A stretch of DNA of 64,000 nucleotides, taken from positions 41,067 through 105,066 of the forward strand of contig JAWAFC010000002.1 in assembly GCA_038890815.1 (NCBI GenBank), in the 5' to 3' direction. Origin of the DNA: Candidatus Micrarchaeia archaeon. Its GTDB lineage: Archaea; Micrarchaeota; Micrarchaeia; Burarchaeales; JACRGF01. Each line of letters begins with the position of its first letter. The first letter of the stretch is position 1. Made by a program: the position numbers and the translations under genes. The notes below the pieces were generated by a model. That model had not been told where the DNA came from. It did not search any database and saw nothing but the letters and a program-made list of their open reading frames with translations. Of this stretch, positions 6,436 to 59,335 are shown piece after piece.

Positions 6436-7071
6436 ATGTGGGGGGAGCTCGAGCTGCTCATCCTGCTCGCCACAGCGGGCGCTGCGGAGGGATGGGCGCG
6501 CACGACGACGAGGGAGATTGCCGGAAAGGCTGGGGCGAGCCAGCAGAGCGCCTCGCGGTGGCTCGCCAGGTTGGAGAGAGCCGGACTGATTGAGAGGCGC
6601 AGGGGGGCGGTGAGGCTCACAGAAAAGGGCAGGGAAAGGCTGCGGGTCGCGCTGGCAAGCCTCAGCACGATTTTTGCAGGAAAGCGCGTGGTGTTGAGGG
6701 GGGTGGTGTTCACGGGGCTGCGCGATGGCAGGTACTACATGTCGCTCGAAGGATACAGAAAGCAGTTCGCCGAGAAACTCGGGTTCGAGCCCTATCCCGG
6801 AACGCTGAATCTCAGAATAGATGAACCTGAGAAGAAAACCCTGCTCGCGCAGCGAAGGGGCATAGAGATCGGCGGTTTCGAGCACAATGGCAGGGTGTTC
6901 GGCGCGCTCAAGGCATTTCGCGCGAGCGTGAATGGCGTTAAGGGTGCGGTGATAATTCCGGAGCGCTCGCACTATGGAAACGATGTGGTGGAAGTGATTT
7001 CCGAGCACTACCTGAGGAAAAAGCTCGGGCTGAGAGATGGTGACAGGGCGGAAGTGGTCGTCAGGGACTAG
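6436..7071 (+). CDS. ribK: CTP-dependent riboflavin kinase with N-terminal winged-HTH domain
   Basis: 211 aa. The N-terminus carries an HTH (TTREIAGKAGASQQSASRWLARLERAGLIERRR). The C-terminal domain has the PYPGTLNLRI motif characteristic of archaeal MJ0056-type riboflavin kinases. Confidence 0.75.
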   Translation: MWGELELLILLATAGAAEGWARTTTREIAGKAGASQQSASRWLARLERAGLIERRRGAVRLTEKGRERLRVALASLSTIFAGKRVVLRGVVFTGLRDGRYYMSLEGYRKQFAEKLGFEPYPGTLNLRIDEPEKKTLLAQRRGIEIGGFEHNGRVFGALKAFRASVNGVKGAVIIPERSHYGNDVVEVISEHYLRKKLGLRDGDRAEVVVRD

Positions 7072-13618: not shown

Positions 13619-14109
13619 TGTTCGCGGGCATAGACCTGGCGGCGAAAGAGAAAAATCCTTCCGCAGCCTGCCTGCTGGGCAGGAGGGTGCAATGCGCCAC
13701 GCTCCACTCCGACAGGGAGATAATTGCATGGGCGGCGGCCGCAAGGCCCGCGCTCATCGCGCTTGATGCGCCGCTCTCTCTTCCAAGCAAAGGGAGCCTG
13801 CGGGAAGTTGAGAGGGAGTTGATCGCGCGCGGCCTGCGCGTTTTTCCAATTCGGGGGGCCATGCGCGCGCTGGCGAGAAGGGGGATGAGGCTGAGAAGAA
13901 AGCTCGCTGCCCTCGGCATACGGGTCATCGAGGTGCACCCGCGCTCCTCCCTGCTGGCACTCCGTCGACTCGGTCAAAACATCCGCTTTCCTGCGGCCTG
14001 CAGGAGCGAGCACGAGAGGGATGCCTGGCTGGCCGCACTCACGGCAAAGCTTTTTGCCAAAGGGAAGTGTGAGGTGATAGGCAGGGCATTCGCACTGCCC
14101 AGTGCCTAG
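13619..14109 (+). CDS. DUF429-like (RNase-H-fold, predicted nuclease) protein; start uncertain (GTG 13619 proposed)
   Basis: VFAGIDLAAKEKNPSAACLLG...IALDAPLSLP resembles the DUF429 N-terminal catalytic block. A TTTTATTTG/TTAAAAAA box at 13591-13613 directly precedes the GTG. The track ORF starting at 13450 overlaps a convergent gene. Confidence 0.4.
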
Positions 14110-14219
14110 GGCGAGATTTGAACTCGCGACTTCCAGATTTCCCGTCATCGCCCGGGGCTCGGCACTCACATCGCGTGCGATATGAGTCTGGCGCTCTAAC
14201 CAGGCTGAGCTACCTAGGC
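14103..14219 (-). tRNA. tRNA-Met (CAU), elongator-type (G1:C72), with ~41-nt intron at canonical 37/38 position. Could alternatively be tRNA-Ile2 (CAU).
   Basis: Hand-folded. Acceptor GCCUAGG/CCUAGGC with discriminator A; D arm GCUC-AGCCUGGUUAG-AGCG; anticodon stem CCAGA/UCUGG with loop CUCAUA+intron; T arm GCGAG-UUCAAAU-CUCGC. No encoded CCA. Confidence 0.75.
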
Positions 14220-20180: not shown

Positions 20181-20290
20181 GCGGGGGTGCCGGAGCCTGG
20201 TCAATCGGGCAGGCCTTAGGATTCGATGGCTGAAGGATGAGAAAGCCTGTGCGCTTAGGCGCTGCAAGAGTTCAAATCTCTTCCCCCGCA
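20181..20290 (+). tRNA. tRNA-Leu (UAG) with ~23-nt intron at 37/38 and long variable arm
   Basis: Acceptor GCGGGGG/CCCCCGC+A; anticodon stem CAGGC/GCCUG with loop CUUAGG[intron]A; variable arm UGCGCUUAGGCGCUGCA; T arm AAGAG-UUCAAAU-CUCUU. No CCA. Confidence 0.75.
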
Positions 20291-20295
20291 CTCCT

Positions 20296-24486: not shown

Positions 24487-24636
24487 GGGGAAAATTTCTG
24501 GAAAGCTAATAAAGTTTTTTCGGAAAATTGCTTCATGTTAACAAGGGCCGATGTGAACGCGCTGGTTTTCACAGCCACAATGGCTGCCTCCTTTTTGCTG
24601 TTCATCCTACTTCTGAGAGCGCTATTCGGCTAAGCC

Positions 24637-25030
24637 TTATCAGAACCAATCGATGACTTCGTCGCTCGTAATAGGAACCTACGGTTCCTATTACCTCCCT
24701 TTTTATTTGCGCGAGGCTCGCTCCTCGTCGAATCGTTGGTTCCGATACCTCCAAACCGCGGGAACCTACGGTTCCCCCAGTTCCAGGTTCCTCCTGACCC
24801 CTCCCTTTTCCATCAATGCTTTTATCCGAGGGGGGAAGGTCAAGGACGAAGGGGGGATACTTCCCCCCTTTGTCTTATCAGAACCGCCAGCGCGGTTCCG
24901 ATACCTCCAGCAACCATTTTCCACCAATGCTTTATCCGAGGGGGGAAGGTCAAGGACGAAGGGGGGAAACCTCCCCCCTTTGTCTAGGGAAGGTCAAGGA
25001 CGAAGGGGGGATACTTCCCCCCTTTGTCTA
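24637..25030. repeat. Hairpin-rich composite repeat element, copy A (~394 bp), with an internally triplicated ~48-bp unit. It abuts the 3' end of tRNA-Thr(GGU).
   Basis: It shares modules with copy B at 33673-33980: ttatcagaaccaa..cg...cttc.tcgctcg.aataggaacc(tac/gta)ggttcctattacctccctttttatttgcgcgaggctcgctcctcgtc...tcgttggttccgat; atcagaaccgccagcgcggttccgatacctccagcaacc; and gaggggggaaggtc[a/t]aggacgaaggggggatacttcccccctttgtct (three copies in A, one in B). Confidence 0.75.
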
Positions 25031-28737: not shown

Positions 28738-29166
28738 ATGGATAGGAGAGATCTGATCATATTGAAAGCTCTTGTGGATAATGCGAGGGTCTCCTACACT
28801 GAGCTGGCCAGACGGCTACGCATCACCGAGGCTGCCGTGCGCAAGAGGGTGAAGAGGCTTGAGGCGGAGGGTGTGGTGCAGCGCTACACCGCGGTGGTGG
28901 AGCCTGTGCTGCTGGGCTTTGCCGCCGTGGCGATCGTTGGCGTGGACACGAGGCCGGACGCGCTGCTGCGGACGCATGAGGCACTGAAGCGGATTAAGAA
29001 CGTCAGATACTCGGCGCTCTCGACTGGCGACCACATGCTGTTGTTCGAGGCGTGGTGCAGAGATCAGGCCGAACTGGGCCGCCTAGTCAGGCGCGTCGCG
29101 CGCATGCCCGGCGTGACGCGCGTGTGTCCCGCCGTGCTGATGAAAAGGCGAGAGATGGCTGAGTGA
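28738..29166 (+). CDS. Lrp/AsnC-family transcriptional regulator
   Basis: MDRRDLIILKALVDNARVSYTELARRLRITEAAVRKRVKRLEAEGVV is the canonical Lrp HTH. The C-terminal RAM domain is present. Confidence 0.8.
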   Translation: MDRRDLIILKALVDNARVSYTELARRLRITEAAVRKRVKRLEAEGVVQRYTAVVEPVLLGFAAVAIVGVDTRPDALLRTHEALKRIKNVRYSALSTGDHMLLFEAWCRDQAELGRLVRRVARMPGVTRVCPAVLMKRREMAE

Positions 29167-29384
29167 ATGCAGGGGGAGTAAGGCGAGTCCACGCCTCAAA
29201 GCAGCATCCTTTTGATGCTCCTTCACGCACTACTATGTGTAGCTTTCGGCGTTTAAAAACTCTGCATCACTATAGTGCGGTGACGAGGACGGACTCGTCC
29301 ATTGCCGAAGACTATAAAGCGAAGGAGGGACAGCGCGCTTCCGGAAAATTCGAGGTATGCGAAAGTATTAATAATGCATAGTGC

Positions 29385-29645
29385 TTGCTTATATTAGTGA
29401 AAACTAATATACTCCGAGCAGTCGCTGATTCCACGCGGCTTGAGCTACTTAGAAAAATAAGCGACGGAGAAGTGTGCGCATGCGCTCTGCCGAATTGCGT
29501 TGGCGTTAGCCAGTCCGCGGTTTCCCAACACCTCAAGGTTTTGTTGGACGCGGGTTTGGTGAAAAGGCGCAAGGAGGGAGTGAAGAGGTTGTATTCGCTT
29601 TCTTCGTTGGGCAGAAAAGTTTGGAAAGACATTTCGAGGTGGTAG
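29385..29645 (+). CDS. arsR: ArsR/SmtB-family transcriptional regulator (TTG 29385 per ORF track; GTG 29397 is a plausible leaderless start)
   Basis: LRAVADSTRLELLRKISDGEVCACAL...VSQSAVSQHLKVLLDAGLVKRRKEG matches the ArsR HTH with a CxC metal(loid)-sensing site. A TATA-like gtattaataatgc lies at 29365-29377, and a 22-bp palindrome tatattagtg-aaaa-ctaatata spans 29390-29411 over the start. Confidence 0.7.
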   Translation: MLILVKTNILRAVADSTRLELLRKISDGEVCACALPNCVGVSQSAVSQHLKVLLDAGLVKRRKEGVKRLYSLSSLGRKVWKDISRW

Positions 29646-29646
29646 C

Positions 29647-29874
29647 GTGAGAGTGGAAATTCTTGGTGGCGGTTGCGCCAACTGCAAGAAACTTGAAGAA
29701 AACGTGAGGGCCGCGCTGGCAAAAAAAGGAGTCAATGCAGAGGTAGTTAAAGTGACTGACTTCGGCGAAATAGCGTCTTACGGCGTCCTGCGCACGCCTG
29801 CACTGGCGATAGATGGCAAAGTAGTGGCGGAAGGAAGAATTCCCTCCGTTGAAGAAATAGCAAAGATGTTGTGA
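29647..29874 (+). CDS. Small thioredoxin-fold (redox-active disulfide protein 2-like) protein
   Basis: 75 aa with a GGCANCKK CxxC motif and thioredoxin-fold length. It is sandwiched in the ars-like operon. Confidence 0.6.
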   Translation: MRVEILGGGCANCKKLEENVRAALAKKGVNAEVVKVTDFGEIASYGVLRTPALAIDGKVVAEGRIPSVEEIAKML

Positions 29875-30839
29875 AGCGAATGGGCGCGCTCGAAGACTTT
29901 GGTGCATGGGTTGTTTACGGCGTACTTGGCATGGCCCGTGACAATCCGTTTGCCGAAGCGCTGAATTTTTTCATCTACGACAACATCAAGATATTCCTGT
30001 TGTTGTTCGGAATAACTTTTGTCGTCGGTATAATCCGCAGTTTCATTACGCCCCAGAAAATAAGGGATTTTCTCGCCAGCAGGAAAAACGGGTCGGGAAA
30101 CGTCTTGGCCGCGTTGCTTGGAATACCCACTCCCTTCTGTAGTTGCTCGGTGATTCCGTTGTTCATCGGCTTCATTCGCGCCGGCGTTCCCCTCGGAATA
30201 ACCTTTTCTTTTCTCATCGCGTCTCCGCTCATAAACGAAGTGGCGGTAGTTCTCTTGCTTGGCTTGGTGGGGTGGGAAGTGACGGCGCTTTACATTGGCA
30301 TCGGGTTTGTCGTCGCCGTCGTGGCTGGATTTGTTTTGGGAAAGCTCGGCTTGGAAGACCAGATAGAAGTTTTTGTCAAAGCGTCCCAAGTCAAGTCTGC
30401 TGGCGACGAAAAACGTTTGACGTGGAGAGAACGCGCGCGTACTGCTCTCGAAGAAAGCAAGACCATTACTAGGCAAGTCGCGCCGTACATAATCGTCGGC
30501 ATTGCAGTGGGCGCTCTTATTCACGGCTATGTGCCGCAGGAATTTTTTCTGCAGTACGCCGGCCCCGGCAATCCTTTCGCTGTGCCCGTAGCCGTGTTGA
30601 TAGGAATTCCCCTGTACTCCAATGCCGCAGGAACAATTCCAATTATTCAGGCACTGATGACAAAGGGAATGGCGACGGGAACTGCGTTGGTGCTCATGAT
30701 GTCCATCACCGCCCTGTCTTTTCCACAGTTGCTGATTCTGCGGAAAGTCGTGAAAACAAAACTCCTTGTTTACCTGGTTGTGATATTGGCGGTTTCTTTC
30801 ATGCTGATAGGATACTTGTTTAACGCAATACTACAATGA
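29871..30839 (+). CDS. arsP: ArsP-type permease (organoarsenical efflux permease family, COG0701)
   Basis: 322 aa, ~8 TM helices, and the TPFCSCSVIP motif corresponding to the conserved TPFcSCS signature of ArsP. Confidence 0.65.
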   Translation: MKRMGALEDFGAWVVYGVLGMARDNPFAEALNFFIYDNIKIFLLLFGITFVVGIIRSFITPQKIRDFLASRKNGSGNVLAALLGIPTPFCSCSVIPLFIGFIRAGVPLGITFSFLIASPLINEVAVVLLLGLVGWEVTALYIGIGFVVAVVAGFVLGKLGLEDQIEVFVKASQVKSAGDEKRLTWRERARTALEESKTITRQVAPYIIVGIAVGALIHGYVPQEFFLQYAGPGNPFAVPVAVLIGIPLYSNAAGTIPIIQALMTKGMATGTALVLMMSITALSFPQLLILRKVVKTKLLVYLVVILAVSFMLIGYLFNAILQ

Positions 30840-30851
30840 CGGTGGTTTTAG

Positions 30852-30937
30852 TGCAGGGGGAGAGATTTGAACTCTCGAAGGCCCTGAGGCCACAGGGTCT
30901 TAAGCCCCGCGCTTTTTCCTGGCTCAGCCACCCCTGC
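30852..30937 (-). tRNA. tRNA-Leu (UAA), no intron
   Basis: 86 nt. Acceptor GCAGGGG/CCCCUGC+A; anticodon arm CGGGG-CUUAAGA-CCCUG; long variable arm (GGCC-UCA-GGCC hairpin); T arm GAGAG-UUCAAAU-CUCUC. Confidence 0.75.
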
Positions 30938-33486: not shown

Positions 33487-33672
33487 TCAGAGCGCATCCG
33501 CAACAGCAAAAGATCGTGGCGCAATCCATTTAAACCTCGCCCGTGTAAAATGTTCGGTCAGCGGCCATAGGGGAGGGGCCAGACCCGAACCCATTCCGAA
33601 CTCGGCAGTGAATCCCTCCCACGATGTCGCTTGTACTGCCATGCGGCGGGAAAGCGCATTGCTGCTGGCCAT

Positions 33673-33980
33673 TATCAGAACCAACCGACGGCTTCCTCGC
33701 TCGCAATAGGAACCGTAGGTTCCTATTACCTCCCTTTTTATTTGCGCGAGGCTCGCTCCTCGTCATATCGTTGGTTCCGATCGGAACCGCCAGCGCGGTT
33801 CCGATACCTTCAAACCGCGGAAGGGCTCCGCCCCTCCCCAGTTCCAGGCTCCTCCTGACCCACCCCAATCAGAACCGCCAGCGCGGTTCCGATACCTCCA
33901 GCAACCCCTTTTCTATCCTTTATCCCCGAAGAGGGGGGAAGGTCTAGGACGAAGGGGGGATACTTCCCCCCTTTGTCTAG
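33673..33980. repeat. Hairpin-rich composite repeat element, copy B (~308 bp), in the same orientation as copy A
   Basis: See copy A. It shares >80% identical modules in the same order, with a single copy of the terminal ~48-bp unit. It lies in the intergenic space between two minus-strand genes. Confidence 0.75.
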
Positions 33981-43849: not shown

Positions 43850-45184
43850 ATGAACTATGCAAGCCTCAGGAAAAAAATCAGCGAGAAGAGCGCGCTCGTG
43901 TGCGTGGTTGGCCAGGGCTACGTTGGTATTCACCTTTCGGTCGCTTTTGCGCGCGCCGGCTTCCGCACAACAGGCTTTGACATAAGCGAAAAGCGCATTG
44001 CCGAGCTGTCACGCTGTTATGACAGCGCCGGGGAAGTCGGCGAGGACACGCTCCGCGAGCTGCAGGCGAGCGGAAAGCTCGCCTTTACCACGAATCCAGC
44101 TTCCATCAGCGAGGCTGATTTTATCTTGCTCGCCCTCCCCAGCCTCCTCACAAAGAAAAAGGAGCCGGACCTATCAGCTATTCGCGCTGCAAGCGAAACT
44201 GTCGGAAAGCATATGAAGCGCGGCGCGGTTGTCGTGCTCGAGTCAAGCGTCTACCCTGGTGTGACTGAGGAAGAGGTTCTTCCGCGCCTGGAGGAGCTCT
44301 CTGGCATGAGAGCTGGCATCGATTTCTCTGTAGGCTATTCGCCGGAGCGTGTGAATCCGGGCGACCCAGAACATTCGTTAGAGAAAATTGTGAAGGTGGT
44401 TGCCGGCCTGGATGACGAGACGACCGATCTCCTTGCTTTTCTCTATGGCCACATAACAAAGGCTGGCACATTCAAGGCCAAAAACATCAAGACTGCCGAG
44501 GCTGCCAAAATCATCGAGAACATTCAGCGCGACCTCAACATTGCGCTCATGAATGAGTTCGCCATCATCTTTGAGCGCATGGGCCTTAGCATATGGGATG
44601 TGTTAGAGGTTGCGAAGACGAAATGGAACTTCATACCATTTAAGCCAGGCCTTGTGGGCGGTTATTGCGTACCCGTCAATCCCTATTACCTCGTATACAA
44701 GGCGCGAAGGCTCGGCTATCGCCCAAGAGTCATGCTTGCCGGCCGAAGCACGAACGACTCCATGCCAAAACACATTGTCAGTTTGACAGAGAAGGCGCTT
44801 GCGAGGGTGGGGAAAAAAACAAAGGGCTCGCGCGTGCTGGTGCTTGGCCTGAGCTTTAAGGAGAACGTACGTGATCCGAGGTTTTCCCCTGTCAAGGAGG
44901 TTATTAAGGGTCTGAAGAGAAAAGGCTGTGCTGTGCTCGCGCATGACCCCCTCCTCTTTAAGTTTGATGTGGAGAAGGAATTTGGAGTAAAAAATCTTGA
45001 TAATTTTGGGATGGCTAGTGGTGTGGATGCAATAATTCTTGCTACAGGTCACAACGAATTTAGGAAAATACCTCTGAGCGAGCTGAGGCGAATCTGCAAC
45101 GAAAAGCCTGTGTTGGTTGACACGAGGAATTTCTTCAGCGAAAAGGAAGGGGAATCGGCCGGATTCATAGTAGTGCGACTATAG
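43850..45184 (+). CDS. UDP-N-acetylhexosamine 6-dehydrogenase (WbpO/TviB/WecC-like nucleotide-sugar dehydrogenase)
   Basis: 444 aa. It has the N-terminal Rossmann VCVVGQGYVGIHLSVAFA, a catalytic-Cys region, and the C-terminal VLVLGLSFKENVRDPRFSP block typical of the UDP-Glc/GDP-Man dehydrogenase family. Confidence 0.7.
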   Translation: MNYASLRKKISEKSALVCVVGQGYVGIHLSVAFARAGFRTTGFDISEKRIAELSRCYDSAGEVGEDTLRELQASGKLAFTTNPASISEADFILLALPSLLTKKKEPDLSAIRAASETVGKHMKRGAVVVLESSVYPGVTEEEVLPRLEELSGMRAGIDFSVGYSPERVNPGDPEHSLEKIVKVVAGLDDETTDLLAFLYGHITKAGTFKAKNIKTAEAAKIIENIQRDLNIALMNEFAIIFERMGLSIWDVLEVAKTKWNFIPFKPGLVGGYCVPVNPYYLVYKARRLGYRPRVMLAGRSTNDSMPKHIVSLTEKALARVGKKTKGSRVLVLGLSFKENVRDPRFSPVKEVIKGLKRKGCAVLAHDPLLFKFDVEKEFGVKNLDNFGMASGVDAIILATGHNEFRKIPLSELRRICNEKPVLVDTRNFFSEKEGESAGFIVVRL

Positions 45185-45203
45185 GTCAAGCGCAATCCAT
45201 TGA

Positions 45204-47072
45204 CTAAAATTCAATTTTAAAGGCATCGCTCCATAGCTCAAGCTCAAGCAGCGCCCACAGCTTGTAGGAATACGCGGCCCTACCTTTCCTGTGCTCATTG
45301 AGCATCCTGAACACTTCGTCCTTGCTGAACAGTTTTGCGCATACTCTACCTTCTGCTATTTTTTGCTCAAGGAACTCGCCAACCTCTTTCTTGAACCATG
45401 GACCGAGCGGAATTCCGAACCCACGTTTTTTCCTTTCCAGAATCTCCAGCGGAAGCCACGGCTTAAGGGCGCGCTTGAACACATGTTTAGTCTCGAGCCC
45501 ACGGAGCTTAAGGTCGCTAGGAATTGTCGCGGCAAACTCAACAAACTCGTGATCGAGCAATGGTGCTCTCGCCTCAAGACTGTGCGCCATGCTCGTTCTG
45601 TCTACTTTTGCAAGAATATCATCGGGCAAATAGGTATTGAAATCTGCGTACATCATCTTGTCCAGTTGTGTCTTTGCATTGCGCTTTGCAAAACAGGCCG
45701 TAATCGATTTCTGGGACGCCGCCTTTTTTAAGCTTGCGAGCCTGCCCTCTTTATACAGCCTTTCTCTTTCCTCGTTGCGATAGAACGACACAAGCTCGGC
45801 ATATCTCTCCGGAAGTGGGAGTCGTGCGAGGGCTTCGAACTTCTCTGCGCGCTGCGCGAGCAGGTGCATCCCAACAAAAGAGAGTGCTTTTTTTGCGGCC
45901 GCCACGCCGATAGCTCTGAGTGGTTGTGGGATTTTTGCATATCCTCTAAGCAACATATCAATAACATACCTATCATAGCCAGCGAAATTCTCATCGCCAC
46001 CATCCCCAGACAACACAACCGTCACATAGCGTCTCGCAAACTCTGAGACCATATAAGTCGGAACTGCACTTGCATCTGCGAAAGGCTCGTCTAAGTACCA
46101 TGCAATTTTTGGAAGATTTTTTATCACGTCTTTTGGATAGAGAATCTTCTCATAATGCTTTGTCCCTAGATGCTCGCTTACCTCTCTTGCGAAAGAGAGT
46201 TCGCTGTAGTCACTTTCCTCGAATCCGATGGTGAAGGTCTTGACATCCTCCGTAGCAACTTTCGTCATCGCAGCGACAACCGCGCTGGAATCTATCCCTC
46301 CCGAAAGAAAGGCGCCGAGCGGAACATCGCTTATAAGGCGCATGCTCACGCTCTCTTTGAGCCTCGAAATAATTTCATTCTCCCAAGCCTCCATACTCAT
46401 CTTCAGGGGTCTGTACCATATATCCCAATATCTATGCAACTCCATCCCTTTTTTTGTCACCAATGCATAATGTGCTGCCTGAAGTTTCTTGGCACCTAAA
46501 AAAATCGTTCTCGGCGCTGGAATATACTGCAGTGCTAAGAACTCGTCGAGCGCGCGCCAATCAATAACCTTACTGATCACGCCACTTTCACTCAGCGCCT
46601 TAAGCTCGGATGCAAAATAAAAAACTCCATCGCGCCACGAATAATAAAGTGGCTTTTTCCCTAATCTATCTCTAGCCAAAAAGAGCATCTTTCTCTTTGC
46701 GTCCCACAGTGCGAATGCAAACATCCCACGCAGACGGGACAGGCAGGCTGTCCCCCACTCCTCATATGCATGAACAATTGTCTCTGTATCGCTCTTTGTT
46801 GTAAAGCGATGTCCACGTAGTTCAAGCTCTTTACGGAGTTGTTGGTAATTGTATATCTCCCCATTGAAAACGATATGGACATCCCCATCCTCATTGCTCT
46901 GTGGTTGATGGCCAGTCTTAAGATCTATAACACTTAGCCTACGCATGCCAAGCGCAACGTTTCGCTCAGCAAATATACCCCAGTCGTCTGGCCCACGGTG
47001 ACGTAAGAGCGCTAGCATACGCTTCAGAATGTTTGCGTCGCCAGGACCCAGAAAACCCGCGATGCCACACAC
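45204..47072 (-). CDS. asnB: Asparagine synthetase-like glutamine amidotransferase (AsnB/WbpS-type), paralogue 1
   Basis: 622 aa. The N-terminal MCGIAGFLG has Cys2 as the Ntn nucleophile. The central ...SGGIDSS... PP-loop ATP-pyrophosphatase motif is LSGGIDSSAVVA. Confidence 0.8.
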   Translation of the reverse strand: MCGIAGFLGPGDANILKRMLALLRHRGPDDWGIFAERNVALGMRRLSVIDLKTGHQPQSNEDGDVHIVFNGEIYNYQQLRKELELRGHRFTTKSDTETIVHAYEEWGTACLSRLRGMFAFALWDAKRKMLFLARDRLGKKPLYYSWRDGVFYFASELKALSESGVISKVIDWRALDEFLALQYIPAPRTIFLGAKKLQAAHYALVTKKGMELHRYWDIWYRPLKMSMEAWENEIISRLKESVSMRLISDVPLGAFLSGGIDSSAVVAAMTKVATEDVKTFTIGFEESDYSELSFAREVSEHLGTKHYEKILYPKDVIKNLPKIAWYLDEPFADASAVPTYMVSEFARRYVTVVLSGDGGDENFAGYDRYVIDMLLRGYAKIPQPLRAIGVAAAKKALSFVGMHLLAQRAEKFEALARLPLPERYAELVSFYRNEERERLYKEGRLASLKKAASQKSITACFAKRNAKTQLDKMMYADFNTYLPDDILAKVDRTSMAHSLEARAPLLDHEFVEFAATIPSDLKLRGLETKHVFKRALKPWLPLEILERKKRGFGIPLGPWFKKEVGEFLEQKIAEGRVCAKLFSKDEVFRMLNEHRKGRAAYSYKLWALLELELWSDAFKIEF

Positions 47073-47081
47073 ACAAAACCC

Positions 47082-48032
47082 TCAACCATTCTCCCTAAAC
47101 CATCTCACAAACTTCTTGATACCTTCATCAATTGACGTACGCGGCTCATATCCAAGCATCCGTCGCGCTTTCGAGATGTCCGCATACGTTATTGGAACAT
47201 CACCGGGCTGAGGAGGAAGATGCGTGATCTTTGCTTTTTTCCCAACATTTTTTTCTATGAGCGTAATAAGCTCGTTGAGCGAAACAGTTCGTGAGCCACC
47301 TAAGTTAAATATCTCGAAACTGAATGGCTTTTCGAGTGCAGCGAGTATTCCCTGTACGATGTCATCTATGTAGGTATAGTCTCTTTTCATGCTACCGTCC
47401 CCAAAAACTGGAATCTCTTTTCCTTCGCTGATGAGGCGAACGAACTTGTGGATAGCCAAATCTGGCCTCTGGCGCGGGCCATAAACTGTGAAAAGGCGTA
47501 GCACTGTCACAGGTATGCCATACAGATGGCTGTAGGTGAAACAGAACAGTTCTGCCGCGCGCTTGCTTGCAGCATACGGTGAGATGGGCTGGGCTATGGG
47601 ATCTTCCTCACTGAACGGCACTTTGTTGTTTATGCCGTACACGCTGCTGGAGGAGCCGAAAATGAATGTTTTGAGTTTCGCGTTTTTGCATGCCTCAAGC
47701 AAGCTGATGGTTCCATTCACGTTTACATCCGCATATTCGAGTGGCCTTTCTAGCGAAGGGCGCACACCTGCCTTCGCTGCGAGGTGGATGACTGCTTCCG
47801 GTTTTGCCTGCGCGACAAGACTCTTCATTCTTTTTGTATCGCGAATGTCAGCCCGGACTAGTTTGAAAAGTCTGTTTTTCTTAAGCGCAGCGATGTTTCT
47901 TTCTTTTATTCTGCGGTTATAGAGGAAGGAATCAAAGTTGTCTACTCCTATGACGTTGTTTCCTCTACTAACCAGCGCCTCACACACATGCGAGCCGATG
48001 AAGCCTGCTGCACCAGTAACTAAAATCCTCAT
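47082..48032 (-). CDS. NAD-dependent epimerase/dehydratase (UDP-glucuronate 4-epimerase-like SDR)
   Basis: MRILVTGAAGFIGSHV with the YAASKRAAE YxxxK catalytic motif. Confidence 0.7.
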   Translation of the reverse strand: MRILVTGAAGFIGSHVCEALVSRGNNVIGVDNFDSFLYNRRIKERNIAALKKNRLFKLVRADIRDTKRMKSLVAQAKPEAVIHLAAKAGVRPSLERPLEYADVNVNGTISLLEACKNAKLKTFIFGSSSSVYGINNKVPFSEEDPIAQPISPYAASKRAAELFCFTYSHLYGIPVTVLRLFTVYGPRQRPDLAIHKFVRLISEGKEIPVFGDGSMKRDYTYIDDIVQGILAALEKPFSFEIFNLGGSRTVSLNELITLIEKNVGKKAKITHLPPQPGDVPITYADISKARRMLGYEPRTSIDEGIKKFVRWFRENG

Positions 48033-48060
48033 GAGAAAATTTTGGCGATGAAATTAAAAA

Positions 48061-49014
48061 CTATCCTCTTCCGATGTCAGACCGTCTTCCAAAAACGAAC
48101 ATAAGTATCCCAATGCAGAAAAAGACCCCCTGCAGGAGTTTGAGCGCCAGCGCCGGAATATACTCCCAGTCTCTTCTTTTTAATGCCAGCAGGGCAAACC
48201 AAAGCGCGATGATGTCGAATGGAAGCGAGAGCAGCGCGAGCAATGGATGCGAAAATACTGTGAAAGCTACCAATGCGGCGAACGATACTAACAAGCCAGG
48301 CAGTCGGACGAACTCCAGCCTTCTTGTCTTTATCATGTAAATCGGTGCAGTCCTGCCATACCACAGCGCGCTCTTGACGAATTCACTAAATGATTCTGGC
48401 ACATTAGAGTACTGAATTGCCCTGCGCTCCAAGACCTCAATTAAACCCTTTTTCTTACAATATGCTTTCAGCCTTTCTCTGAGCTCCATGTCTTCGCCCA
48501 CCCCCAATTTTGCAAACCCACCGACATCGAAAAACACCGTTCGGCGTATCGCGCCGGCTGCAGACATCGTCCCATCAAAAGGTCCTGCAAACGATGGGTA
48601 ATGAAAATATTGCTGCTTAAGGTAAAGCCTCTCAAACCAAGTATGCACGACAAACTGGTAACGCGTCATGACACCAGCTACACGTGGATCTTTGAAATGT
48701 CTCAATACACGAAAGAAGTAAGCTCTGTTGTATCCATCAAAGTCGGCGTCACAAAAAGTAAGAAAAGGGGCATTTGTGGCCCTCGCACCCTGATTTCGTG
48801 CGCCCGCTGGGCCGGTCTTTTCTTTTTGGTGCAGTACTTTACAGCCAAACTTTCTTGCAACTGTAACTGTACCATCGGTGCTTCCACCATCAACTACGAT
48901 GATCTCCTTGTCCGGATACGGATTTTTTGTCAGATTGTACAATAGCTTCTCGAGTTTCTTTTCCTCATTAAGTGCTGGGATGATTATTGCAACTTTCCCA
49001 AAACTCTTTTTCAC
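48061..49014 (-). CDS. Family-2 glycosyltransferase with C-terminal TM helices (Dpm1/AglJ-like)
   Basis: The N-terminus VAIIIPALNEEKKLEKLL...IIVVDGGSTDGT...DADF has the GT2 DxD context. Two or three C-terminal hydrophobic helices follow. Confidence 0.65.
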   Translation of the reverse strand: MKKSFGKVAIIIPALNEEKKLEKLLYNLTKNPYPDKEIIVVDGGSTDGTVTVARKFGCKVLHQKEKTGPAGARNQGARATNAPFLTFCDADFDGYNRAYFFRVLRHFKDPRVAGVMTRYQFVVHTWFERLYLKQQYFHYPSFAGPFDGTMSAAGAIRRTVFFDVGGFAKLGVGEDMELRERLKAYCKKKGLIEVLERRAIQYSNVPESFSEFVKSALWYGRTAPIYMIKTRRLEFVRLPGLLVSFAALVAFTVFSHPLLALLSLPFDIIALWFALLALKRRDWEYIPALALKLLQGVFFCIGILMFVFGRRSDIGRG

Positions 49015-50177
49015 TCAATCAACTCTCTATACAGCTCATGATGCTTTTTTGCAGTCATGCGAATATCATGATGTTTTCTCGCATAAGCAAATGCTCTCGT
49101 TCCGATTTTTCTATTGAGTTTGGTATCTTCAAGCAGCATGCGGGTGGTCTCAATCAATTTATTGAAATCTCCTTTTGCATGAAAACCGATTTTCTCCTTG
49201 CACAAGACCTCATCCGGGTCAACATTTAGCGAAACAACGGGAGTTTTCCTCAGCCAAGCCTGAATAAACGTATTGGGAAAACCAGCGCTATCGCTTGTAT
49301 CGACAAGCACACTTGCTCTGGCAATAATGGCGTTAACTTTTTCTAAAGATTGAAATGGAAGTATTTCGACATTTTCCGTTTTCTTAGCGAGCTCGAGCGT
49401 TTTCGCGAAAATGTTGTAAGTCTTTCCCATTATATCTTTCTCCTGTATTGCTCCGACCATGACAAACTTATAATGTGGGAATTTTTGCGCGAGCTCGATA
49501 AACTGCATTGGAAATTTATAGTCAGCAGTCCTCCCTACCCACACTGCAAACGGAGGATCGGATTTTTTTGGGAGACTTTTCGGTACCGGGTGGCCAGAAG
49601 GAATGATACGAATATCCGCATTAGGCATGCATTGAGCCATTGCTTTGCGGAGGTATTCTGCAGTAGCAATAATTACATTGGCGTTTTTGAGCCCATAAAG
49701 ATAAAGTCTTTTTTTAATTGTATTTCTGAAAAACCCCCTCCACATATTTCCAGACAGCGTACAGTCATCGATGTGCGCGATGGAGAAGACAAAAGGTCTG
49801 GCATTCTTCTTTGCATGATGCGCGAAATAACCCGTTGCGATGTTGCTCCCCCTCTGGTGATAAATGTCCGCTTTAAAGGAGTTGAGCACGCGCGTGAAGA
49901 AAGGGTGAGAATAAGTAAGAAAGGAATTGAGCGCGAAGAAGGGAGCCGCTTCCACCAAATCCCATAGCGAGCGCTTGAAAGTCCTCACCTTGTGGAGTAT
50001 CTGTCCCTTCCTAACAATTGTTTCTGGCTGCCCCTCGTCATCAACCAAATAGTGTGTTTGCCAACCAAGCCTTTGTAACTCCTTCCCGATCAAGTAAAGC
50101 TGTATCTCAGCGCCCCCCACTCTTCTGCTCACGAGCGGATGACCCATTGTATAGTAGCAAACGCTTTTCCCGCTCAT
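49011..50177 (-). CDS. Family-4 (GT-B) glycosyltransferase
   Basis: 388 aa with a GT-B fold pattern and a C-terminal E-x7-E-like region. The ATGA overlap with the downstream GT2 gene indicates an operon. Confidence 0.6.
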   Translation of the reverse strand: MSGKSVCYYTMGHPLVSRRVGGAEIQLYLIGKELQRLGWQTHYLVDDEGQPETIVRKGQILHKVRTFKRSLWDLVEAAPFFALNSFLTYSHPFFTRVLNSFKADIYHQRGSNIATGYFAHHAKKNARPFVFSIAHIDDCTLSGNMWRGFFRNTIKKRLYLYGLKNANVIIATAEYLRKAMAQCMPNADIRIIPSGHPVPKSLPKKSDPPFAVWVGRTADYKFPMQFIELAQKFPHYKFVMVGAIQEKDIMGKTYNIFAKTLELAKKTENVEILPFQSLEKVNAIIARASVLVDTSDSAGFPNTFIQAWLRKTPVVSLNVDPDEVLCKEKIGFHAKGDFNKLIETTRMLLEDTKLNRKIGTRAFAYARKHHDIRMTAKKHHELYRELIE

Positions 50178-51856
50178 CTCTTGCTCACCATGATGTTTCC
50201 CATTACGAGATGTCTAAGCCCAGACCGCTCCATTGTGTAAAGCGCATCTGTAGGCGAGCACACCATCGGCTCACCATGGAGGTTGAAGCTCGTGTTCAGC
50301 ACGCCACCGATTCCTGTCTCTTTTTCAAAATATTCCAGTATCCTGTAGTAGTCAGGATTGCTCCAATTTTCGAGTATTTGTGGCCTGAGTGTGAAATCGG
50401 CGGGATGCATGGCCGCGACAAGCTCCTTGCGCGCGAGCGGCTTCGAGCGGAAGGCCATTATCATGTAAGGTGCAGGAATCTTTTTCGGATTGATAAGATA
50501 GTCATCTGCTCTTTCCGCGGACAGCGTGGGCGCAAATGGCATCCAAAAGTCCCTGCTCTTTATCTGCTCGTTGATGATGCGTACGGTCTCCCATGTGCTT
50601 GGGTTTGCGAGAATTGCCCGGTTCCCGAGACTCCGTGCACCCCATTCCATTCTGCCGGAGCAGCGTGCGACTATCTCGCCCTCAGCAAGTAGGCCCGCGA
50701 TTTCTTTGGCGATATTCTTACATCGTCTTACATCGTAGTTTTTCCCGAGACGCGCGAGTGCCTCCTTGATTTCTTTTTCGCCGAACTCCATCCCTAAGTA
50801 GAGGTCCTTTAGTGGTGTAGTAGGCGCGTCCTGTCCAGCCAATTCCTTGTAGGCGTAGAATACCGCACCGAAGGGCGTACTTTCGTCTCCGCATGATGGC
50901 AACGGGTAGAGTTCCTCCACTTCTGGAAGTTCGCTGATGAGCATGTTAGCCTTGACGTTCATGAAAACGCCACCTGAGAGAATAACACGCCTTACGCCTG
51001 TTTTTTTTACTGCAGCTCTCACCCACCTCACAAGCAGGTCTTCTGTCAGCCGCTGCACACTCGCTGCAATGTTATCGAACCTCTCGTGTTTGAGCATTTC
51101 ATCTAGATAGAAGAGCGAGCGCTGTGTGTTAAAAGCCGACTTGAACGAGAGCTCGTTCTCATCTAACCAAATCATGGGCTTAAACACCCTCTCATAAGTC
51201 TTTTTGTAATACTCTTTCGCATAGGGCGCGAGGCCCATGAGTTTGTACTCATGCTCGAGTGGCTTCATTCCCATATAGATTGTTGTCGCGGCGTACACAA
51301 GGCCAATTGAGGCCTCCAGCGGTGTTGCGGCGATCCTTCTGATTCTTCCCTCGCGCGCAATGTTGACCGTCGCGCACAGGCCATCTCCCTCGCCATCGAG
51401 CGTGAGCACGAGGGCTTCCTCGATTCCATCAGTCATGCCAAAATAGCCCGCATAGGCATGACAGGTATGGTGGTCTATGAAATGGATTTTACTCTCCGGA
51501 ACGCCAAGTCTTTTCAAGAGGATTTTTTTAACTGCCTTTCTGCCAGCCGCGCTCCTTCTTTTCCGAATAAAGTGAACAAGTGGGAGGGCAATGACGCGAA
51601 GAATCGGGTGGGCGTAGTCTATTGTTGCCCAAATGCTTCTTGCGGCGCTCGGCATGCCAAGTGCAACCCCACGTGCCTTTTCGTAGTCGGAATGATTTTC
51701 TGTCGAAACGACCGCAACCGCATCCAATTCTTCGCCCGTGATCCCCTCGCTTTCAAGAACCCATTTCCACGAATTTGCGGGTACTGCGTCCTCATTTTTC
51801 CTGCGCGTAAACCTTTCCTCGCTCACCGCCCTAACTATTTTTCCGTCTTTGAGCAA
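50174..51856 (-). CDS. NodU/CmcH-family carbamoyltransferase (COG2192). The annotated TTG start truncates a conserved N-terminus; an in-frame ATT at complement 51899-51901 may be the true start.
   Basis: ...LLKDGKIVRAVSEERFTRRKNEDAVP matches the family N-terminal block. The 14 codons upstream in-frame (IYILGIVFGHNSTVA) match the family consensus M-Y-I-L-G-I...H-D-S-A-A, with ATT in place of ATG. Confidence 0.7.
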   Translation of the reverse strand: MLKDGKIVRAVSEERFTRRKNEDAVPANSWKWVLESEGITGEELDAVAVVSTENHSDYEKARGVALGMPSAARSIWATIDYAHPILRVIALPLVHFIRKRRSAAGRKAVKKILLKRLGVPESKIHFIDHHTCHAYAGYFGMTDGIEEALVLTLDGEGDGLCATVNIAREGRIRRIAATPLEASIGLVYAATTIYMGMKPLEHEYKLMGLAPYAKEYYKKTYERVFKPMIWLDENELSFKSAFNTQRSLFYLDEMLKHERFDNIAASVQRLTEDLLVRWVRAAVKKTGVRRVILSGGVFMNVKANMLISELPEVEELYPLPSCGDESTPFGAVFYAYKELAGQDAPTTPLKDLYLGMEFGEKEIKEALARLGKNYDVRRCKNIAKEIAGLLAEGEIVARCSGRMEWGARSLGNRAILANPSTWETVRIINEQIKSRDFWMPFAPTLSAERADDYLINPKKIPAPYMIMAFRSKPLARKELVAAMHPADFTLRPQILENWSNPDYYRILEYFEKETGIGGVLNTSFNLHGEPMVCSPTDALYTMERSGLRHLVMGNIMVSKR

Positions 51857-51921
51857 AGCTACTGTGCTGTTGTGGCCGAAGACTATCCCTAAAATATAAA
51901 TAGTTCCACCCGGTACTTATT

Positions 51922-53097
51922 ATGTGTGCGAGGTTTAAAAAAATGATTCGCGTTTTTTTCAACCTGTCTCCGCGCCACAGGGTTCGCTTCCGCGAGACTG
52001 TCTGGCATCCACCTCCAGGAGTTATCTATGTGAACAAAATCCCTCCCACCTGGAAGGATACAAACATCAGCCCGGCAGATCCACTGCGAGAGCGTGCTAC
52101 AAATCTTTTGAAAAAAGTTATTGATATTTTCCGTATTCCGAACATCCGCCTCGCCCGTCCGAACCTCCCATGCGACCTTATCCATGCACCCGGCCAGCTT
52201 TTGCTCAATCGCCAGCAGTGGGTGACAGAGATTGACAACCCTGCGGTTCTCACTCTTTATAATCTCAACACGCTCTACTCACGAATAGGTCAGTTTTGGA
52301 TAAAGCGATTTCTCCGCTCACGCCACTGCGGAGGGGTTATTGCTATTAGCCAGGCGGCAAAAAAAAGCCTTGCGAATGTTCTACGTGATGATGAAATAAA
52401 CTCAAAAACTTCTGTTGTTTATCCTTTCGTACGTCTCTCGCCCTTTAGGAAAAAGCCGAGCGAGCACATCCGTCTCCTGTATGTGAGCACTAGTTTCTTC
52501 CGCAAGGGGGCGCGCGAGCTCCTCAAGGCATTCGAGAGGCTTAACAAGATGTTCCCCAATAAGCTTTCGCTCACTCTTGTCACAAACGCCCCCAAGGAAT
52601 ACATCTCACGCTATTCACGTTTTCCCAACATCCGTCTCCTTCCCGCAAACATTCCGAAGGAAATTCTTTATCGCGACTTTTTTTCGGATGCCGACATTTT
52701 TGTTGTTCCGACTTACCAGGACAGCTTCGGCCTCGTCAATCTCGAGGCCATGAGCGCCGGCCTGCCAGTTGTTGCTACTGATCTTTTCGCACTACCCGAG
52801 ATGGTAGAAGACGGTAGAAACGGCTTCCTGCTACCGTGCCCCATACCTTATTTTAGGCCGGATTACACACCGAATCCTGCCGTATGGTCATTGAACTTGG
52901 AGGAGTACTGCAGCCGAAAGGAGTTTCCGGAAATAGTCAATGGGCTGATCGAAAAGTTGACCATACTCATTGAGGACGAAAAACTCAGGAGGCAAATGGG
53001 CGAACGCTCACTGAAAGCTGTTAAGGAAGGAAAGTTCAGCGAGAAAGTTCGCGCGGCCTCACTTATTCAAGCTTACCGCCGCGCGTTGGGTGAGTGA
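51922..53097 (+). CDS. Family-4 glycosyltransferase; start uncertain
   Basis: The C-terminal GT4 signature [39 protein letters not shown] (E-x7-E) is present. The N-terminal ~35 aa of the track ORF may be a 5' over-extension. Confidence 0.65.
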
Positions 53098-53098
53098 A

Positions 53099-55033
53099 TT
53101 GTGCGGAATAGGTGGAATCTACTGTTTCAATGGTGGAAAAGTACGAAAGGCCGCTCTTAAAAGTATGATCTCGGTCCTGCGCCACAGGGGGCCGAACGGC
53201 TGTGGTGTGAGGGTCTTCGACTCGGCAGGCCTTGCTCATACACGCCTAAGCATTATCGACCTTTCGAAGCGCGCCACACAGCCAATGAGCAATGAGGATG
53301 GCAACTTATGGATCGTGCTTAATGGCGAAGTATACAACTACCGTAAGCTCAGAAGCGAGCTCACGCAAAAAGGCCACCGTTTCAGGAGCGCGAGCGACAC
53401 TGAGGTCATTCTCCATCTTTATGAAGAAGAGGGCGAGCGTTGCTTGTCACGCCTACGCGGAATGTTCGCATTCGCGCTTTACGACAGAAGAAAGAACGAA
53501 ATGTTTCTCGCACGCGACAGGATAGGCGAGAAGCCTCTCGTATATGGGATTTTCAATAACGTTCTATATTTCGCCTCGGAGATTCCCGCCATTCTCAATG
53601 CTTCCGGCTGTCCTAGAGAAATCGACCTTGAGGCTCTCCATCATTACTTCTCTGATTCTTGGTATCATCCCCCCGCGCCCTACACGATCTTTAAGGGAAT
53701 TAGGAAGCTGCCAGCTGGTTGCTTCGCGCGCGCCACAAGAGAGGGACTCTGCATCAGGAAATATTGGTCTCTCGACTTTGGCAGAAAAAGCAAGGCAAGT
53801 GAGGCCGAGTTGTGCAGAAGCCTGCGCAATAGGTTGCGCGAGGCAGTGAGATTGCAACTCGAGAGCGATGTGCCAGTTGGCATCATGCTGTCTGGTGGCA
53901 TCGACTCTTCCTCCATAGTGCTGGCCATGCGCGAGCTTGGGGTGCAGACCATCCGCTCTTTTGCTGTTGGCTTCAGCAAGGATGACGAGGAGCTACAGCG
54001 TGCGCGCCTCGCAGCAAAATTTTTTGGCACAAAACATACCGAGCTCATAATAAAGGCCGATGATATCTCACGCTTGCCAGAGATGATCGCGCTTTATGGA
54101 GAGCCCATCAGTCTGTTGCCTGCGTTCTACACGTTCGAGCTCTCAAGGCTCATGAATCGACATGTCACGGTTGTGCTCACTGGCAACGGCGGCGATGAGC
54201 TCTTCGGAGGATACGACTACTATAACAGAGTGCGCCTACTCTCTATTCTCTCACGTATTGATTTCCTTTTACCGCATTCTCTGTTTGGACTAGCCGGCAG
54301 AGCGCTCGGCGCGCTCTTTACAAAAGGCTTTCTTTCCGAAATCGCATTGGGCTTGCGTATTCTTGGTAGCAGTTTTTTCAAGAGAAAGGGCTTGTCGGCT
54401 CGCGAGGATGGCGAGCGGCTCCGCCGTTCTCTCTACTCCCCGGCAGTGCGTGAAAAACTGGCACGCTCGGATACTGGAAGACTGCTCGATGACGCTTTCG
54501 CCGAACCGCAGTGCGGAAGCTACTTTGATCGTGTGCTATACGCAGACCTGACCGTAGGCAACTCGCACTCCGTAGTGGTCTCAAGCGACGTGGGCGGCAT
54601 GGCACACGCGCTTGAGATGCGCTCCCCTTTTCTCGACCCAGGGCTTCTTGAGTTCTCCTCCATCCTGCCTGAACGAATGAAAGTTCGTTCTCTTTTTGAC
54701 CCCTCACAGAACAAGTACATCCTCAAGAAAGCTATTGAGAGCGATGTGCCCGCGGAGATCGTATCTGCAAAAAAAATGGGCTTCGGGTTCAACATTCCTT
54801 GGCGTGCCTGGATGAAAACGAAGTGGAGGCGCACCATACATAGCCTGTTGTTTGATGGCTCGCTTGCCCGCTCGGGTCTGTTCGACATGAACTTCGTTAA
54901 AAAAATTTTTGAAGAGAATTCAAGCGGAAGAGCAGACCACTCTAGACTACTTTTTGCTCTAGTTGTCTTCTCGATCTGGTACAAGCTCTTTATTGAGCGC
55001 GTTTCTGTGAAAAGACTAAAACTTAAATTCTGA
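53099..55033 (+). CDS. asnB: Asparagine synthetase-like glutamine amidotransferase, paralogue 2 (TTG start placing Cys at position 2)
   Basis: From TTG 53099 the product begins (M)CGIGGIYCF. The track start at GTG 53090 would place the catalytic Cys at position 5, which is incompatible with Ntn amidotransferases. The PP-loop is MLSGGIDSSSIV. Confidence 0.75.
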   Translation: MCGIGGIYCFNGGKVRKAALKSMISVLRHRGPNGCGVRVFDSAGLAHTRLSIIDLSKRATQPMSNEDGNLWIVLNGEVYNYRKLRSELTQKGHRFRSASDTEVILHLYEEEGERCLSRLRGMFAFALYDRRKNEMFLARDRIGEKPLVYGIFNNVLYFASEIPAILNASGCPREIDLEALHHYFSDSWYHPPAPYTIFKGIRKLPAGCFARATREGLCIRKYWSLDFGRKSKASEAELCRSLRNRLREAVRLQLESDVPVGIMLSGGIDSSSIVLAMRELGVQTIRSFAVGFSKDDEELQRARLAAKFFGTKHTELIIKADDISRLPEMIALYGEPISLLPAFYTFELSRLMNRHVTVVLTGNGGDELFGGYDYYNRVRLLSILSRIDFLLPHSLFGLAGRALGALFTKGFLSEIALGLRILGSSFFKRKGLSAREDGERLRRSLYSPAVREKLARSDTGRLLDDAFAEPQCGSYFDRVLYADLTVGNSHSVVVSSDVGGMAHALEMRSPFLDPGLLEFSSILPERMKVRSLFDPSQNKYILKKAIESDVPAEIVSAKKMGFGFNIPWRAWMKTKWRRTIHSLLFDGSLARSGLFDMNFVKKIFEENSSGRADHSRLLFALVVFSIWYKLFIERVSVKRLKLKF

Positions 55034-56528: not shown

Positions 56529-56530
56529 CA

Positions 56531-57959: not shown

Positions 57960-57963
57960 CTTT

Positions 57964-59280: not shown

Positions 59281-59335
59281 ATAATGTCTTTGGCATGTAA
59301 TTATTAATGTACATTTCTACTAAGCTAAGAAAAGC

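Follow-up and report, generated by a model that had tools for sequence, protein, structure and literature searches.

An arsR–arsE–arsP operon, probably of lateral origin, at the 3' end of tRNA-Leu(UAA) in a Candidatus Micrarchaeia genome

Three co-directional genes lie at positions 29397-30839 of the plus strand in a 64-kb window (the whole stretch of DNA that was analysed) of a Candidatus Micrarchaeia metagenome-assembled genome. They encode, in this order, a small ArsR-type repressor, a thioredoxin-like protein of the MTH895/ArsE family, and a permease of the ArsP family, and they stand between a short direct repeat and a tRNA-Leu(UAA) gene (Table 1). An earlier interpretation made from the letters alone (the sequence-only reading) had read the genes as arsR, a thioredoxin-fold gene, and arsP, placed the motif TPFCSCS in the permease, and described the three genes as coupled; the profile matches and the gene spacing agree with it on each of these points. 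The three genes form an operon, with intergenic gaps of 1 nt (arsR/arsE) and 5 nt (arsE/arsP) and a GAGGTGG Shine-Dalgarno-like site before the second gene. The 5-nt gap becomes a 4-nt overlap if the permease starts at its alternative GTG.

Table 1. Features of the arsR–arsE–arsP locus, in window coordinates
Feature	Position	Strand	Description
arsR	29397..29645	+	82-aa minimal ArsR/SmtB winged-helix repressor, alpha-3 Cys27-x-Cys29 site
arsE-like gene	29647..29874	+	75-aa MTH895/ArsE-family thioredoxin fold, predicted redox-active C10-A-N-C13
arsP-like permease (PF03773/COG0701)	29880..30839	+	319 aa, TPFCSCS in membrane segment; alternative start GTG 29871
Putative archaeal TATA box AAAGTATTAATAAT	29362..29375	+	-35 to -22 from GTG 29397
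Palindrome TATATTAGT-GAAA-ACTAATATA	29390..29411	.	spans arsR start codon; candidate ArsR operator
Distal 11-nt direct repeat TGCAGGGGGAG	29168..29178	+	identical to last 11 nt of tRNA-Leu read on + strand; 2 nt after Lrp/AsnC stop
Lineage-specific spacer	29188..29361	.	between synteny breakpoint and cassette promoter; no recognisable function
tRNA-Leu(UAA)	30851..30937	-	ARAGORN and Rfam; convergent with permease, 11 nt from permease stop codon

The product of arsR is matched by PF01022 (54.1 bits, E=1.4e-14) and by NF033788 (81.9 bits against a cutoff of 55). Its most likely start is GTG 29397, which aligns with the ATG or GTG of six homologs; TTG 29385 is the mechanical start of the open reading frame. 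The best PDB match of the protein is CadC, to whose CVC the CxC of residues E-V-C27-A-C29 is aligned, and E-x-C-x-C is invariant in 11 ArsR homologs from these cassettes. Among the 11 homologs aligned, a third cysteine (C34) is present only in the window protein, where it follows the pair at +5, in contrast to the +3 of the R773-type Cys32/Cys34/Cys37 arrangement. A two-cysteine site of this kind would suit a two-coordinate ligand such as methylarsenite, MAs(III).

The 75-aa protein with the motif GGGC-AN-C scores 99.4 bits with PF13192 (Thioredoxin_3) and 100.8 bits, against a cutoff of 62, with the NCBIfam model TIGR00412 ("MTH895/ArsE family"). PDB entry 1ILO (MTH895) aligns with it end to end (E=8.5e-16) and has an identical GCANC active site, and both GxGCxxC and the cis-Pro TP are invariant among 14 homologs of this thioredoxin-like protein. 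The permease is covered almost completely by PF03773 (257.4 bits against a cutoff of 32.3; profile positions 2-293 of 294), a family for which we found no solved structure. It has the motif IPTPFCSCSVIPLF and carries IPTPFCSCSVIP, and TPFC(S/T)CS is invariant among 14 aligned homologs. The start at ATG 29880 is the one kept in homologs and used by NCBI. A database protein (P0001), named 'permease, Ca. Micrarchaeia', is 100% identical to this form and starts at the same ATG; an exact-sequence look-up of the 322-aa form starting at GTG gave no match.

The combination of the three genes is not peculiar to the window. Close homologs of the permease (72-82% identity) all come from Micrarchaeota, and six further genomes of this phylum (L001, L002, L005, L025, L027, and L029) have genes for ArsR, Thioredoxin_3, and ArsP_1 in this order, the context being different in each. 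Chlorohelix has exactly arsR–trx–permease. In a tblastn survey of all fetched loci, a thioredoxin-like gene adjoins the permease or shares its operon in 13 of the 14 informative loci. In all six bacterial contexts on plasmids or chromids, where the permease is 45-51% identical, its partner is a "thioredoxin family protein" of ~78 aa, and an ArsR-family regulator gene is in the same cluster in four of them. A metagenome scan with the permease as query returned only 7 loci. In the literature, "redox-active disulfide protein 2" was already listed as an ars-operon determinant by Castillo & Saier 2010 (PMC2963123), and an arsenic-induced arsR5–arsP–arsE(PF13192)–DGC operon has been described in Pseudodesulfovibrio mercurii ND132 (bioRxiv 10.1101/2022.10.17.512643). 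The sequence-only reading had called the thioredoxin-fold gene an uncommon partner for arsP. Since the triad is widespread and ArsE has these precedents, including the NCBIfam name, that claim has to be withdrawn. The cassette is an ordinary one, another example of a known ars-type kind that both archaea and bacteria carry widely. It adds one Micrarchaeota example of a very widespread and biochemically under-studied module, and for annotation the thioredoxin-like gene should be treated as the normal partner of these permeases.

The related cassettes have some features of their own. A small ferredoxin-like gene with 4Fe-4S cluster motifs comes after the permease in L001 (6957-7361), L002 (6957-7337), and L029 (5024-5266); it overlaps the permease stop codon in L001 and L002, and starts 58 nt downstream of the stop in L029. 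The best NCBIfam match of the L002 protein is a weak one to the HgcB ferredoxin, far below cutoff. The window cassette is without this gene. In L005, a degenerate second copy of the 5' coding end of arsR (ATGAACATTGATATAGCCCGAGCGATATCGCG…) lies at 5407-5450, ~110 bp upstream of the real arsR start, and may be a remnant of cassette duplication or replacement.

A link to arsenic comes from the permease motif and from the company that more distant homologs keep. A C(S/T)C motif is universal in ArsP homologs and is preceded by tPF in cluster 2 (Yang et al. 2015, PMC4435449); the TPFCSCS of the window permease equals this 'tPF-C(S/T)C'. According to reviews, ArsP of Campylobacter jejuni effluxes MAs(III) and trivalent roxarsone, Rox(III), but not As(III) (PMC6205960). 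Permease homologs that are 50-60% identical adjoin ACR3, ArsC, ArsA, or ArsM. Downstream of the Methanoregula permease, which is 60% identical, comes a bona fide ACR3 (447.7 bits; cutoff, 282.8), the Sulfuricella homolog is found inside arsR–arsC–acr3–…–arsM–trx–arsC, and the Comamonas homolog follows arsA–arsC–acr3. Among the close relatives, L002 (permease 82% identical) has an ArsC-like low-molecular-weight phosphatase two genes downstream, which scores below equivalog cutoffs. An organoarsenical substrate is thus plausible on the grounds of family and motif membership and of the homologs in ars operons, and the label "organoarsenical" for the permease is to be read as one derived from homology. 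The Methanoregula locus (L023, 1-8611) is in itself a large cluster, with two PF03773 permeases, a Thioredoxin_3 gene, three DGC-domain proteins, DUF166, and the ACR3. Genes for MtrA-like, CdhD-like, and ferredoxin proteins come next, which suggests a corrinoid methyl-transfer module linked to arsenic genes.

With the start codon as anchor, the sequences upstream of arsR in the six closest cassettes can be aligned with no gap. In this alignment the TATA-like element of the window, AAAGTATTAATAAT, matches gap-free with TTTAAATATATAA, which is conserved at -33 to -21 in six related cassettes. No Shine-Dalgarno sequence is present before arsR, which would imply a leaderless mRNA with its transcription start close to the start codon. 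A scan for sigma-70 promoters and intrinsic terminators was uninformative, the window being archaeal. The palindrome that the sequence-only reading had placed over the arsR start is real, and better than described there: its arms, TATATTAGT (29390-29398) and ACTAATATA (29403-29411), are perfect 9-bp repeats on either side of a GAAA spacer, and it is unique within the window. Perfect inverted repeats as such (at least 8 bp, spacer of at most 10 nt) are not rare here, with 47 nested hits at ~27 loci against 17±5 in Markov shuffles, and a hit inside one given promoter is an event of roughly 1-2%. Therefore, the weight of the palindrome comes from its position and its conservation in relatives. 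A 20-bp type, ATAT(A/T)AGTnn followed by AAACTnATAT, is common to the related cassettes, whose hosts range from 36 to 58% guanine plus cytosine (GC). In the window (8/10 pairs) and in L027 (7/10), the best 20-mer is of this type at -6, across the start codon; in L001 (9/10), L029 (8/10), L002 (7/10), and L005 (6/10), the type is among the best 20-mers at -22. Both registers sit in the interval between TATA box and start, where an archaeal repressor would block initiation. These comparisons yield a concrete candidate, AAACTnATAT, for the operator half-site in this clade of archaeal ArsR proteins, and they show the cassette travelling as a unit together with its promoter.

The place in which the cassette sits is variable among relatives. 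The neighbouring genes belong to ordinary archaeal housekeeping (Lrp/AsnC, peroxiredoxin (Prx), SOD, PAC2, and FlaJ-like), and a GTDB genome, L006 (contig JAWCPB010000035.1), shares in the same order FlaJ (85%), PAC2 (90%), the tRNA-Leu gene, Lrp (95%), and Prx. Its slot between the tRNA and Lrp holds an unrelated 372-aa gene, weakly GH53-like, and in another relative, L034 (JGI Ga0137716_10022820; PAC2 83%), a DNA methylase adjoins the same tRNA end. The three relatives (the window, L006, and L034) hold three unrelated cargos at this end, and the cassette is absent from the orthologous slot in the other two. On the left, homology with L006 ends at ~29187, ~9 nt past the distal repeat; on the right, homology with L006 and L034 resumes exactly at the tRNA 3' end. 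The tRNA-Leu 3' terminus (30852-30862, plus strand) is at once the right-hand synteny breakpoint and the proximal copy of TGCAGGGGGAG, which has only two exact copies in the window, this one and the distal repeat at 29168-29178. L006 keeps the distal repeat at the same place as TGCAGAGGGAG, with one mismatch. Adjacency to a tRNA gene is not general for the cassette in the other genomes examined.

Two apparent resemblances did not hold. A 26-nt match to the tRNA-Leu end at 20267-20292, considered as a second att remnant, is part of another intron-containing tRNA, and the 372-aa genes of L006 and L025, considered as related, have only their length in common. The spacer between the left breakpoint and the promoter (29188-29361) has no similarity to L006 or to the other cassette loci. 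A search of 29180-29400 for an RNA element or pseudogene gave no Rfam hit and an RNA fold z-score of -1.17, and a 72-aa open reading frame in the spacer has no Pfam hit.

In L034, the tRNA-Leu(UAA) (6780-6890) has an anticodon-loop intron of ~113 nt, which consists of tandem copies of a GGAACC…GGTTCC hairpin; members of the same family occur in the window at 24877, 33780, and 33868. The orthologous tRNA-Leu of L006 (5838-5878), a gene missed by ARAGORN, carries a ~38-nt insertion in the T-arm, between GAGAG and ATTTGAAC in window orientation, which is probably a non-canonical intron; the window copy is without it. Two further tRNA genes of the window were found by Rfam and not by ARAGORN, at 14103-14219 on the minus strand (60.8 bits) and at 20181-20290 on the plus strand (40.6 bits), and presumably contain introns because they are 110-117 nt long. 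Elsewhere in the window, 24615-25030 and 33650-33980 share a module of repeated hairpins, the second beginning at the 3' end of the 5S rRNA (33557-33670). A segment of 132 nt is 86% identical between the two regions and includes GTAATAGGAACC-N3-GGTTCCTATTAC followed by a T-run; in addition there are four copies of GACGAAGGGGGGA-N4-TCCCCCCTTTGTC and three copies of ATCrGAACCGC-CAGC-GCGGTTCCGATACCTCC. Neither region has an Rfam hit, and the module may represent arrays of terminators or a small family of mobile hairpins.

The base composition of the cassette differs from that of its surroundings, to a smaller extent than first proposed. The sequence-only reading had contrasted a cassette of ~48-50% GC with a neighbourhood of about 62% GC: the cassette has 50.2-50.5%, and the neighbourhood is at 58.0% in the ±5 kb flanks and 56.0% in the whole window. 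Likewise, the spacer before the cassette has the expected length of ~220 bp but is not A/T-rich throughout, having 49.5% GC with A/T richness only in the last ~35 bp, which hold the promoter. Third-position GC (GC3) is 0.49-0.59 in the cassette genes and 0.63-0.79 in the neighbouring genes, and in the 60% GC domain (1-44 kb) the values of the cassette genes are near the bottom of the range. The GC of the cassette is ~50-51% in the window, L001, and L002, whatever the GC of the host. It is below the flanks by 7.5 points in the window and by 6.1 points in L001, and matches or exceeds them in five other genomes. This composition is consistent with an unameliorated acquisition from a lineage of about 51% GC. 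Apart from the cassette, a large low-GC domain occupies ~44000-64000, with gene GC of 44-54% and GC3 of 0.44-0.58 as against ~60% and 0.70-0.77 in 1-44 kb. As a compositional anomaly this domain far exceeds the cassette, and it may be an extensive island of acquired DNA.

Taken together, we consider it reasonably probable that arsR–arsE–arsP is a self-contained accessory operon which reached the variable slot at the tRNA-Leu(UAA) 3' end by lateral transfer; the donor would probably have been another lineage of Micrarchaeota, with a GC content of about 51%. For its mode of action we infer the transcription start, the binding of ArsR, the substrate, and the role of ArsE. Transcription would start ~25 nt downstream of the archaeal TATA box and yield a leaderless arsR mRNA, and a dimer of the 82-aa ArsR would bind the 9-4-9 palindrome that straddles the transcription and translation start and block RNA polymerase. 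A thiophilic trivalent metalloid, bound by Cys27-x-Cys29, would release the repressor; methylarsenite, another trivalent organoarsenical, or As(III) would be the likeliest ligand. The ArsP-family permease would export the compound via its membrane-embedded Cys-Ser-Cys pair. The small CxxC protein ArsE may support the permease by thiol-disulfide chemistry, perhaps keeping the permease cysteines reduced, or reducing or handing over thiol-bound arsenicals.

The sequence-only reading had already considered the module horizontally acquired, and the unrelated slot genes of L006 and L034 between the same flanks or at the same tRNA, together with the presence of the cassette in different contexts in six other Micrarchaeota genomes, bear this out. 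It is quite unlikely, by contrast, that the cassette is an ancestral one which the relatives have lost or replaced, with a lower GC that is due to the composition of a membrane-protein gene and not to foreign origin. Such a history would fit the finding that the triad is present in every Micrarchaeota genome examined that has a close permease, that the nearest homologs are all from Micrarchaeota, and that GC is only ~1.2 standard deviations low among 1.7-kb windows, the 44-64 kb region being lower still. However, the context of the cassette is different in every genome, and close relatives have unrelated cargos at the same tRNA end; the low GC is not intrinsic either, as the five genomes with cassette GC at or above that of the flanks make clear, and GC3 is low in the soluble arsR and trx genes as well. 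Some observations do weigh against the lateral, tRNA-targeted acquisition that we favour. In a loose null, 2.5% of random segments reach the alignment score of the repeat against the tRNA region, and the repeat was noticed post hoc; its exact geometry (at the tRNA terminus, in direct orientation, and at the breakpoint) makes a chance repeat less likely. Between the repeats there are only the three cassette genes, and no integrase or recombinase. The cassette DNA is only ~73% identical to the nearest sampled relative, so the transfer was not recent or the donor is unsampled. A bolder version of lateral acquisition, to which we give little credence, is that the interval from Lrp to the tRNA-Leu(UAA) 3' end is a site-specific cassette-exchange hotspot of this Micrarchaeia lineage, where integrase-free, promoter-carrying cassettes are swapped in trans between tRNA-terminus repeats; so far the slot has been seen to hold arsR-arsE-arsP, a gene for a secreted glycosidase-like protein, or a DNA methylase. 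If true, the hotspot would let DPANN archaea, with their reduced genomes, trade accessory functions in the manner of integrons. As it stands, the variable tRNA-Leu slot is a minor lead on accessory-gene exchange in DPANN genomes.

Regulation and substrate have to be weighed in the same manner. The role of the palindrome as an autoregulatory ArsR operator is plausible, and supported but not proven by the comparison of promoters. Its right arm lies within codons 2-5 (K-T-N-I), so coding constraint may account for some of its conservation, and in four relatives (L001, L002, L005, and L029) the best palindrome is not at the window position but 16 bp upstream. These two points, the self-complementary ATAT cores, and the ~27 loci with short perfect inverted repeats in the window would also fit a palindrome that is a by-product of an A/T-rich archaeal promoter and conserved K-T-N-I codons, with ArsR binding elsewhere or to other targets. 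We regard this as unlikely: all six close cassettes have the same 10+10 type in one or the other of two fixed registers despite their unrelated contexts and the wide range of host GC, the Thr codon ACT is identical in 6/6, both registers overlap the region where archaeal repressors act, and no further copy occurs in the window. A stronger challenge concerns the substrate. With the same architecture and regulation, the ArsR-type sensor and the CSC permease might handle another thiophilic species and not an organoarsenical: inorganic As(III)/Sb(III), Cd/Zn/Cu, or a reactive compound of sulfur or selenium. General thiol repair would then be the task of the thioredoxin-like protein, and we consider this a genuine if somewhat unlikely possibility. 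The window cassette has arsR adjacent to the permease but no arsC, acr3, or arsM, or any other ars gene, beside it; PF03773 also includes the Cu/Zn (SO_0444) and SaoE exporters; some permease homologs sit with rhodanese, CDF, or DUF2703 genes (those of Citrobacter and Comamonas are flanked by rhodanese, CDF, OsmC, and DUF2703 genes); and the best solved relative of ArsR is a Cd sensor, CadC. SaoE and SO_0444 are also the only NCBIfam equivalogs that the permease matches, but both matches are far below cutoff (144.3 against 325 and 121.5 against 300). Against this alternative stand the closest homologs outside Micrarchaeota, which adjoin ACR3, ArsC, ArsA, or ArsM, a middle gene whose family is named after ArsE, and the induction of the ND132 arsR-arsP-arsE operon by arsenic.

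Among known systems, ArsP of C. jejuni, a methylarsenite and roxarsone(III) efflux permease, resembles the window permease at the level of family profile and motif: both are full-length PF03773 'ArsP_1' proteins with C(S/T)C in the membrane and an adjacent arsR. In contrast to it, the window permease is archaeal, and there is no acr3 or arsC in its operon. The arsR5–arsP–arsE–DGC operon of P. mercurii ND132 is made up of the same three families (ArsR, PF03773 permease, and PF13192 ArsE) and is arsenic-induced; however, it is bacterial, its order is R-P-E-DGC as opposed to R-E-P, and the window has no DGC-domain gene. The middle protein is, like MTH895 of Methanothermobacter (1ILO) and ArsE (TIGR00412, 'redox-active disulfide protein 2'), a single-domain thioredoxin fold of ~75-77 aa with an identical GCANC. 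ArsE reportedly has a role within ArsEFG in the detoxification of roxarsone and nitarsone, a finding said to be that of Chen, Zhang and Rosen from 2019.

The window ArsR shares with R773 ArsR and pI258 CadC the winged-helix HTH_5 domain and an ELCxC-type cysteine pair at the start of the recognition region. Those two repressors are autoregulated from a promoter-overlapping palindrome, to which the candidate palindrome of the window may be likened. The window protein is much smaller (82 aa), lacks both the N-terminal arm and the alpha-5 extension, has only two cysteines that its clade conserves, and would act on an archaeal TATA promoter with a putatively leaderless mRNA. With regard to its location, the insert differs from tRNA-targeted islands in being only 1.7 kb long, in having no integrase or other mobility gene, and in that its short repeat is also found in a relative with different cargo; but, like them, it abuts a tRNA 3' end, has a distal direct repeat of the terminal 11 nt of the tRNA, occupies a slot of variable content, and is atypical in composition.

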